A stretch of DNA of 11,975 nt from the IMG/VR virus record IMGVR_UViG_2675903425_000020; one strand, written 5' to 3'. Positions 6,473 through 7,249 of this stretch are shown here, piece by piece. Source of the DNA: a virus. Lineage: Duplodnaviria; Heunggongvirae; Uroviricota; Caudoviricetes. Position numbers and translations under genes: made by a program. Under the pieces are notes generated by a model. It was not told the origin of the DNA. It ran no database searches and saw nothing but the letters and a program-made list of their open reading frames with translations. Numbering within the stretch: the first letter of the stretch is position 1; each line of letters begins with the position of its first letter.

Positions 6473-6548
6473 TTTAACGTATGTCGCCAATTTCCTGATG
6501 AAGGTGACTGGCGACTTGCTGTTGTATGTCCTTCTCAGAAAATTGTTT

Positions 6549-6577
6549 TTGAATAACAAATAACAGGATTTTATAAT
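6549..6577 (+). promoter_or_regulatory. Predicted sigma70 promoter of the acetyltransferase moron
   Basis: -35 TTGAAT (6549-6554), 17-bp spacer, -10 TATAAT (6572-6577, perfect consensus); about 50 nt upstream of the GTG start at 6629 in an AT-rich context. Confidence 0.55.
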
Positions 6578-6628
6578 CTCTTAACCTTATAACATGTGTG
6601 GTCTGAAATAATAATTAAGGAGATTATC

Positions 6629-7201
6629 GTGCTATCTTACTTAATGGCAATTCACTTTGTTTTATTTGGAAACTCTACTAATTTAAAAAACTTCTGGAAA
6701 CATGAAGTAATTCGGCGGAAACGTATGGATATCTGGAGGCTTTTAAGAGAGAAAAAGCAGCGTAACCGGAATTTCCTTTTCTGGTGGCGGTTGGCTAACG
6801 AAATGTATATTAATGGTAATAAATTACATAAGAAAGCAGCCAAAAAGTTAAACAGTAAAATAATTAACAAGTTTGGTTGTGAAATAGGATTGGGCGCAAA
6901 TATTGGAAAAGGGTTGACAATTCCCCATCATGCTGGAATTGTTGTTCATTTTGCTGTTGATGCGGGTGAAAATCTGGTATTACGACAGAATACTACCATT
7001 GGACAGATAGATGGTGATATGCCTAGTTCAAGAGTAAAAATTGGTAGTAACGTTGATATCGGAGCTAATTGTTGCATCATTGGATTATCACGTAAAATTG
7101 GGGATAATGTAAAAATAGGTGCAATGTCTTTTATAAATAAAGATATACCATCAAACTGCACATATATAACTAAAAAGAGTGGTGTTGTATTGTATAAATA
7201 G
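6629..7201 (+). CDS. Hexapeptide-repeat (left-handed beta-helix) O-acetyltransferase, WcaB/CysE serine-acetyltransferase-like; prophage cargo gene
   Basis: ORF-track span 6596-7201. Preferred start is GTG 6629, six nt after AAGGAG (6617-6622). Translation carries tandem hexapeptide motifs: IGLGANIGKGLTIPHHAGIVVHFAVDAGENLVLRQNTTIGQIDGDMPSSRVKIGSNVDIGANCCIIGLSRKIGDNVKIGAMSFINKDIP, resembling the catalytic region of CysE/WcaB-type acetyltransferases. Region is visibly AT-rich (roughly 30-35 percent GC by eye) against GC-rich tail genes on both sides. Confidence 0.8.
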   Translation: MLSYLMAIHFVLFGNSTNLKNFWKHEVIRRKRMDIWRLLREKKQRNRNFLFWWRLANEMYINGNKLHKKAAKKLNSKIINKFGCEIGLGANIGKGLTIPHHAGIVVHFAVDAGENLVLRQNTTIGQIDGDMPSSRVKIGSNVDIGANCCIIGLSRKIGDNVKIGAMSFINKDIPSNCTYITKKSGVVLYK

Positions 7202-7210
7202 AGTACATAA

Positions 7211-7249
7211 AGCCATCGATATTTCTGTCGATGGCTTTTTCTTTTTATT
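7211..7249 (+). terminator. Rho-independent terminator downstream of the acetyltransferase gene
   Basis: 9-bp perfect stem AGCCATCGA (7211-7219) / TCGATGGCT (7228-7236), 8-nt loop, followed by TTTTTCTTTTTATT (7237-7249). It overlaps the stop codon of the convergent tfa copy on the minus strand. Confidence 0.7.

Follow-up and report, generated by a model that had tools for sequence, protein, structure and literature searches.

NeuO, encoded by prophage CUS-3 of Escherichia coli K1, is a soluble, beta-helical hexapeptide-repeat O-acetyltransferase whose gene lies beside a tail-spike/fibre gene and which modifies polysialic acid, the glycan that its phage recognises. The seroconverting acetyltransferases, such as Oac of Sf6, GtrC of BTP1 and the acetyltransferase of phiV10, are integral-membrane proteins that act on the O-antigen from the periplasmic side. 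The seroconverting acetyltransferases of temperate phages have been reviewed (PMC9558356). In phage P2, the gene fun(Z) is a non-essential, variable, single gene of foreign composition, which lies beside the tail-fibre assembly gene G and antisense to it (bioRxiv 10.1101/2024.10.15.618418). Here we describe a cassette that resembles each of these systems in part. It occupies positions 6473-7249 of an 11,975-nucleotide stretch of DNA (hereafter the window; IMG/VR virus record IMGVR_UViG_2675903425_000020), which is part of a defective P2-like prophage of the CP-933T type found in E. coli O157:H7 and relatives. The cassette carries one gene, for an O-acetyltransferase that the databases name serine O-acetyltransferase. 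We propose that its product may instead O-acetylate lipopolysaccharide (LPS) of the lysogen.

The same 573-nucleotide coding sequence (CDS) is called by RefSeq in the matching O157 locus under the product name "serine O-acetyltransferase", and UniProt uses the same name for the exact protein (A0A0H3JG20), which is found on at least 1,000 contigs. The start codon is GTG in the window and ATG, at the same codon, in the homologue of P1-like phages. Sequence matches to solved CysE structures reach down to E = 1.5e-12. An AlphaFold model built from 95 homologues (pLDDT 96) showed five N-terminal helices followed by a left-handed beta-helix, and its best matches in the PDB, by fold as well as by sequence, are all CysE serine acetyltransferases with a TM-score of about 0.73. 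In three CysE structures, E85 and H100 of the protein align with Asp143 and His158, the catalytic pair of CysE (E. coli numbering). H100 is conserved in at least 90% of the 95 sequences and is invariant among 12. The preliminary description of this DNA, made from the letters alone, had recognised a 191-codon gene for a WcaB/CysE-like beta-helix acetyltransferase; the length (190 residues and a stop codon), the family scores, the structure matches and the predicted fold all agree with that assignment.

Membership in the CysE family itself is a different matter. The two NCBIfam models of CysE (TIGR01172 and NF008349) gave 62.4 bits against a cut-off of 210.65 and 36.6 bits against 397. The best-scoring curated family was EpsC (76.2 bits, cut-off 150), and the WcaB models gave 54.4 bits against 194.65 and 55.8 bits against 196. 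The Pfam search (E <= 0.01) found only Hexapep, at a score of 24.4 slightly under the gathering threshold of 27, and Hexapep_2, with no match to SATase_N. The protein is about 80 residues shorter than CysE, and the five helices of the model are shorter and superpose only in part on the CysE N-terminal domain. At the positions of D157, R192 and H193 of CysE, which hold serine or cysteine (numbering of the E. coli and Haemophilus influenzae structures), the protein has P99, S134 and R135, and the family shows no consensus there. The C-terminal tail of CysE ends in Ile and docks into CysK. Here the C-terminus, ...SGVVLYK, comes right after the beta-helix and has no terminal Ile. No cys genes were found near the cassette. 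These comparisons indicate that the protein is not a bona fide CysE. Since the general-base pair is kept while the protein falls outside the CysE family, it is very probably active as an O-acetyltransferase, on some acceptor that is not serine.

The protein is a soluble, acetyl-CoA-type enzyme. Its family is small, is found mostly in Gammaproteobacteria and has CysE, WcaB and EpsC as relatives. Among 1.84 billion cluster representatives (50% identity), 17 matched at E <= 1e-30 and 345 at E <= 1e-10. The motifs LFWWRxA, IRQNTTIG and IGAMSF are common to the family. WcaB and EpsC, short enzymes resembling serine acetyltransferases, share the short architecture and are the best-scoring curated families, but the scores are far under the equivalog cut-offs, and the genes of the present family are found in LPS-core or prophage contexts instead of colanic acid or exopolysaccharide operons. 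The only strong match in PHROGs was phrog_2154, a family without assigned function. Phage-borne members carry an extra hydrophobic N-terminal helix, MLSYLMAIHFVLFG (residues 1-14, 6629-6670), which is missing in the homologues of the waa clusters and of the Xenorhabdus and Morganella prophages. This helix could be a membrane-association element.

To what acceptor the acetyl group would be transferred is suggested by the neighbourhoods of family members. Among roughly 25 contexts examined, about 6 were of LPS type, and the members in these share the family motifs and are about 43-50% identical to the protein of the window; for those inside LPS-core (waa) clusters, the identity is about 43-48%. 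In Leminorella grimontii, the homologue ends the core operon waaP-waaB-waaI/O-waaY-waaZ and is convergent with waaL. In a Pseudomonas, it comes after two WaaP-family kinases and a GT2 glycosyltransferase and before a UDP-glucose dehydrogenase gene; in Halopseudomonas, its neighbours are an MsbA-like ABC transporter gene on one side and NeuB on the other; in Intestinirhabdus, it abuts ugd and ArnT/E/F-like genes. Two prophage types have the homologue in a two-gene unit, together with a GT25 glycosyltransferase gene in Xenorhabdus bovienii (L185 5001-6393; comparison loci are numbered with the letter L) and with a GT9 heptosyltransferase-like gene in Morganella (L183 4867-7194). Convergent with each unit is a presumed tail-fibre gene, which comes after the baseplate wedge and has no domain match. 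These two-gene units may be phage-borne operons for remodelling of the LPS core.

Other members are found elsewhere. Members with 57% identity lie at prophage ends beside hok/gef and copA, a 44%-identical member follows the integrase of Peduoviridae ESSI2_ev040, and a member in Salmonella lies beside an integrase. In a phmmer scan, no P2 proteins were found near the 14 closest homologues on genome contigs; these 14 copies are chromosomal orphans or lie within LPS clusters.

On this basis we propose, with a probability of roughly 0.45, that the cassette is a lysogenic-conversion gene whose product would O-acetylate LPS, probably in the core. P2- and P1-type fibres bind the LPS core. The enzyme would acetylate LPS during its assembly on the cytoplasmic face, and O-acetylserine would not be the product. 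Since the relatives stand beside LPS-core enzymes, it is probably the phage receptor that is acetylated, rather than cysteine that is made; and since the fibres bind the core, expression in the lysogen would edit the receptor, which amounts to lysogenic conversion. The outcome would be less adsorption of superinfecting phages that use the LPS core, and fewer progeny lost on cell debris. The preliminary description had suggested a sugar O-acetyltransferase acting on O-antigen or capsule. A surface glycan, namely LPS, is retained here as the likely target, and it is to the core that the neighbourhoods point, not to O-antigen or capsule.

Several points weigh against this proposal. Many family members stand alone, either in host regions of unrelated content or at the ends of prophages, and have no LPS gene near them, and a distant relative in Pseudomonas lies beside a sulfate permease gene, which would fit sulfur metabolism. 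The substrate is read only from gene neighbourhood, at 43-50% identity, in a superfamily in which acceptor specificity changes easily. To our knowledge, from a search that was not exhaustive, no O-acetyl group has been reported on the R3 or K-12 core of E. coli. Activity of the promoter in the lysogen is a prediction, and the adjacency to the tail-fibre assembly gene (tfa), described below, may just mirror the position of the hotspot.

A wider proposal, which we hold more tentatively, concerns the family. It is possible that these proteins are cytoplasmic LPS-core O-acetyltransferases, and that at least three myovirus backbones have captured the gene as a receptor-editing gene welded to the module of fibre tip and chaperone. 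The three backbones in which a member was found are P2-like, P1-like and of the Xenorhabdus/Morganella type. A host-range determinant and a receptor mask would then be exchanged together. In Pseudomonas, core O-acetylation is documented and its enzyme is unassigned (PMC8005017), so that the family has some wider relevance.

The proposed logic, in which a lysogen acetylates its own LPS against superinfection, is that of Oac, GtrC and the phiV10 enzyme. Those are membrane proteins of the acyltransferase-3 (AT3) type, whereas the present enzyme is a soluble, cytoplasmic beta-helix protein with relatives in core clusters; no match to the multi-pass membrane AT3 domain was found in Pfam, and the model is that of a soluble protein. 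With NeuO, the protein shares the hexapeptide architecture and a prophage gene beside a fibre gene. The target of NeuO is capsule, not LPS, and no polysialate acetyltransferase was among the 33 PDB sequence matches of the present protein. NeuO is also phase-variable through heptanucleotide repeats at its 5' end. Tandem repeats were not found in 6400-7300, and phase variation of the NeuO type was rejected for this gene.

Other explanations of the gene were weighed against LPS-core acetylation. The acceptor may be another envelope glycan, acetylated on an undecaprenyl-linked intermediate (an O-antigen unit, enterobacterial common antigen, colanic acid or capsule). This would still be lysogenic conversion, with NeuO as its precedent. 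The best family models, EpsC (76 bits) and WcaB (55 bits), are indeed those of polysaccharide-cluster enzymes, and the Halopseudomonas homologue is near NeuB. All of these scores are far under their cut-offs, however; no close relative (among L016-L029 and ten look-ups) lies in a wzx/wzy-type, colanic acid or capsule cluster, and the informative relatives are in core or lipid A contexts. Since the prophage spans several O serotypes, an O-antigen-specific target in particular is unlikely, and we regard another glycan as an unlikely acceptor in general. The enzyme may also be a true serine O-acetyltransferase, in which case the gene would be of the auxiliary metabolic kind and would, without being subject to cysteine feedback, increase the supply of O-acetylserine and cysteine or switch on the CysB regulon. 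The RefSeq and UniProt names, the nearest solved structures (all CysE, TM-score 0.73), the kept catalytic pair and the one distant relative beside a sulfate permease gene would be accounted for. Such a role is nevertheless quite improbable in view of the scores of the CysE models (62 against 211 bits, 37 against 397), the missing SATase_N match, the replacement of D157, R192 and H193 by P, S and R at positions that vary in the family, the missing Ile for CysK binding and the lack of cys genes nearby.

The preliminary description had also considered a role in anti-phage defence. The product would then be an intracellular factor for this or another kind of defence, and its substrate could be a metabolite, a xenobiotic or some part of a phage. 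P2-like phages have established hotspots of defence genes and other cargo in their fun(Z) and old/tin slots (PMC9122126; bioRxiv 10.1101/2024.10.15.618418), fun(Z) of P2 is annotated as blocking T5, and homologues of the present gene occur at three different prophage positions. The protein matched none of the 5,027 models of PADLOC-DB 2.0, even at E <= 1, and is thus not a described defence protein. Its only PHROGs family has no function assigned, it has no partner gene, and the xenobiotic acetyltransferase families CatB and Vat are absent from its NCBIfam matches. Members in waa clusters are also hard to reconcile with a dedicated role in defence, which we consider rather doubtful. It might further be argued that the gene is a hitchhiker without current function, or a modifier of the fibre or chaperone of the phage itself, carried along by a frequently exchanged fibre module. 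The tight linkage to the 3' end of tfa and to the terminator in several backbones, and flanks that are more conserved than the CDS, are as expected of recombination substrates. The substitution pattern described below indicates purifying selection on the protein, though, the gene is intact in a prophage with broken D and T genes, and members occur away from fibre genes and inside waa clusters, which makes either role very unlikely.

The composition of the cassette sets it apart from its surroundings. Its GC content of 33.6% is the lowest of all 777-bp windows (with the minimum at 6472), against a mean of 53.9% (sd 3.1, lowest 47.0) in windows of that size that do not overlap the cassette, and GC at third codon positions is 29% in its CDS against 56-62% in FI, FII and U. 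The AT-rich island that had been noticed from the letters is thus borne out by calculation. The other elements of the cassette had been described as a near-consensus sigma-70 promoter, a strong Shine-Dalgarno sequence and a clean intrinsic terminator (Table 1). The Shine-Dalgarno sequence is present and is conserved in L003, L011 and L014. The terminator hairpin folds at -18.3 kcal/mol on the plus strand (z = -6.4 against shuffled sequences), and at -16.1 kcal/mol on the minus strand (z = -4.95), so that it may also serve the convergent tfa gene. For the promoter, the sequence match stands, but the number of such sites in the scan, four, equals that in shuffled sequence (4.0 +/- 1.8). The match alone is therefore no evidence, and the support comes from conservation.

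This conservation was seen in a second lineage of prophages (L011-L015), in which the acetyltransferase is 71% identical and the CDS is 72% identical as DNA. The 100 nucleotides upstream (6529-6628 against L011 5901-6000) are 96% identical, with both promoter hexamers and the Shine-Dalgarno sequence unchanged, and the 45 nucleotides after the stop codon (7202-7246 against L011 6574-6618), which include the terminator, are 100% identical. The higher conservation of the flanks than of the CDS may reflect either strong regulatory constraint or recombination handles for allele swapping. Within the CDS, identity between the two lineages falls from 80-83% at the first two codon positions to 54% at the third. 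Such a bias of substitutions to the third position points to purifying selection on the protein. D and T of this prophage are broken and the acetyltransferase gene is intact, as had been noted from the letters, and retention of the gene by selection, which had been surmised from this, agrees with the codon pattern. The cassette is co-directional with U and lies 156 nucleotides downstream of it, and read-through from late transcription is therefore possible; the expression independent of late transcription that the preliminary description had read from the cassette is a prediction. No riboswitch or small RNA was found in the conserved 5' region by an Rfam search of the cassette.

The slot itself was compared among P2-like prophages. 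The gene order in the window is D(-), FI to U (+), cassette (+), G(-) and H(-), whereas phage P2 has the genes FI through D in the same direction as H and G. The order with FI-U inverted relative to D, ogr and the H-G operon is also found in strain 55989 and in the second lineage (window 420-6472; L003 15159-22011; L011 1-5855). Decay mediated by the insertion sequence IS30 was considered as the origin of this inversion and was rejected, since the order is the same in 55989 and in the lineage L011-L015, in which D is called at full length (381 aa) and the tape-measure gene is continuous. The comparison indicates that the inversion is the natural gene order of a subgroup of Peduoviridae. In P2-like phages of canonical order (L162-166 and L178), a homologue with 49-67% identity lies in the arrangement G(-), acetyltransferase gene (+), FI(-), antisense to both neighbours. 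In P2, the place just upstream of FI is likewise taken by a gene of the opposite strand, fun(Z). By its position, the cassette is assigned to the fun(Z) slot of P2, in agreement with the fixed cargo hotspot that the preliminary description had invoked. It differs from fun(Z) in that the F operon is inverted here and the cassette is downstream of U instead of upstream of FI. The products also differ (about 528 aa for Fun(Z), 190 aa here), and similarity between them was neither detected nor expected.

Sister prophages with a 95%-identical gpU have a recombinase-family invertase gene, an alternative C-terminus of the fibre and an alternative tfa at the same spot between U and G. Gix-like inverted repeats, TTATTTAAAACCTCGGTTTACAGGAA, bound this invertase/fibre cassette, and the invertible segment is apparently intact in O145:H28 strain RM12581 (L100 5379-8740) and in strain 1162invT2 (L101 5379-8806). 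Homology of the window to a sister prophage without the acetyltransferase gene ends at 6478. Since the occupants of the spot vary, it is a true hotspot. Published descriptions of the Z/fun hotspot likewise give a mixture of exchanged fibres, invertases and further cargo (bioRxiv 10.1101/2024.10.15.618418; PMC9122126). The invertible fibre segments Mu G/gin and P1 C/cin are comparable in position, as seen in L100, L101 and P1, and the cassette stands in their place; the variants with the acetyltransferase have no invertase and no gix-like site, and their fibre is fixed. A remnant of an invertible segment was rejected as an explanation of the cassette, as no gix-like site (up to 7 mismatches) was found in the window or in L001, L003, L004, L011 and L014; the same scan found both sites in the comparison loci L100 and L101. 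We conclude that the cassette is a horizontally acquired, single-gene moron in a slot adjacent to the tail-fibre genes. In the second lineage, an 87-aa truncated tfa and a gene for a 222-aa SAM-dependent methyltransferase (L011 6617-7605, also in L012, L013 and L015) sit between the acetyltransferase gene and the full tfa, as a second cargo in the hotspot.

The link of the gene to the fibre module extends to P1-like phages. In Ro157c2YLVW and JL22, part of the invertible C segment has given way to the gene for a 91%-identical protein, with a remnant of U' still present upstream. Homology to the window at the DNA level sets in at the start codon (6630) and continues through the gene, the terminator, tfa and the C-terminus of the fibre, with 91-97% identity across this shared module. 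The promoter region is different, with a predicted TTGACA-18-TAAAAT about 130 nucleotides upstream. Among the best 80 of 232 related loci in IMG/VR, a convergent tfa lies 4-54 bp downstream in 67, at protein identities from 99% down to 45%. That the gene travels with the module of fibre tip and chaperone reflects either a functional coupling to receptor specificity or mere position in the hotspot. The authors who described JL22 stated that it is unknown why this gene is present (PMC9603915).

The gene has thus been annotated before, and literature searches for a characterised function turned up only mentions of its presence (PMC6456863, PMC9603915), with neither transcription data nor an experimental account of a lysogen phenotype among the results; the functional role given here is a proposal. 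At least 80% of the region 6400-7320 is present in 510 of 5,426 complete E. coli genomes. If the acetyltransferase edits the receptor, a prophage gene acting on the structure of the LPS core would be present in about one in ten complete E. coli genomes, the carriers including Shiga-toxin lineages of O157, O55 and O111 as well as P1-like phage-plasmids. Susceptibility to LPS-dependent phages would be affected, with consequences for phage therapy and typing, and core-directed antibodies could be affected as well. Core O-acetylation, for which no gene is named in the Pseudomonas literature, would gain an enzyme family, and the locus would be a clear case of a receptor-modifying gene that is swapped together with the receptor-binding module as a unit. 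If the proposal is false, the cassette is still a clean and widespread cargo of the fun(Z) hotspot, whose database name "serine O-acetyltransferase" is unsupported by its sequence.

Table 1. Features of the window and of the cassette. Positions are those of the 11,975-nucleotide window.
Feature	Positions	Strand	Remarks
IS30-family transposase fragment	1-469		interrupts gpD
gpD N-terminus	420-875	-	
Sheath FI	901-2085	+	
Tube FII	2085-2597	+	
gpE	2652-3017	+	
Tape measure T	3132-5971	+	frameshift near 5100-5126
gpU, which closes the FI-FII-E-T-U tail operon and bounds the slot on the left	5978-6472	+	Pfam Phage_P2_GpU, 1.5e-38
AT-rich cargo cassette between gpU and the tail-fibre assembly gene	6473-7249	+	GC minimum
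Sigma-70 promoter-like site, TTGAAT-17-TATAAT	6549-6577	+	predicted; 10 of 12 consensus matches
Shine-Dalgarno sequence AAGGAG	6618-6623	+	5 nt before the GTG start
Left-handed beta-helix O-acetyltransferase CDS, 190 aa and stop	6629-7201	+	RefSeq WP_000954203.1; UniProt A0A0H3JG20
Intrinsic terminator: 13-bp stem (7209-7238), 4-nt loop, T run	7209-7248	+	folding energy
Tail-fibre assembly gene (P2 G/tfa), 3' two-thirds	7245-7613	-	Pfam Caudo_TAP, 3.4e-40; convergent with the cassette
973-aa fibre open reading frame	8112-11033	-	hybrid
lom	11088-11462		lambdoid
J C-terminus	11550-11858		lambdoid

In E. coli O157:H7 and relatives, the prophage adjoins pgsA and the tRNA genes glyW-cysT-leuZ. The region 6400-7320 is 99.9% identical to O157:H7 chromosomes, and in no complete E. 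coli genome is at least 80% of the window covered. The hosts of the prophage comprise serotypes O157, O55, O111 and O84, and strain 55989.

Part of the window requires caution. A run of 50 Ns at 7614-7663 cuts tfa, and both sides of this gap carry the same part of tfa, about 90% identical to each other; the run is a scaffold join within a repeat. It is for this reason uncertain whether the P2-like block really adjoins the lambdoid J-lom-stf-tfa block, and their junction may be an artefact of scaffolding; the lambdoid fibre, lom and J genes beyond the gap may come from another prophage. In complete genomes, the P2-type genes G and H come after the cassette. The location given in the preliminary description, between the tail operon and the tail-fibre genes, holds as far as gpU on the left and tfa on the right are concerned; the fibre genes beyond 7614 lie across the gap. 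The window has further N runs (11186-11217, 11487-11536) and two single Ns (10830, 10848).

The decay of the surrounding prophage, in the form of the IS30 fragment, the interrupted D and the frameshifted T, was confirmed; the change of frame in T was seen by comparison with strain 55989, in which T is intact and 935 aa long. The C-terminal half of the 973-aa fibre (8112-9623) is 94% identical to the P2-type H of strain 55989, and its N-terminal half is Ala/Ser-rich and lambdoid. The only Rfam match above threshold was IS009 (RF02111; 191 bits, gathering threshold 117) at 7282-7480 on the minus strand, inside tfa. The version of the prophage in 55989 lacks a gene for a macro-domain protein that lies between H and G in the prophage of O157:H7 strain PV15-279 (L001 15433-16335). 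In PV15-279, an extra IS1203 has removed FI-E and the start of T.

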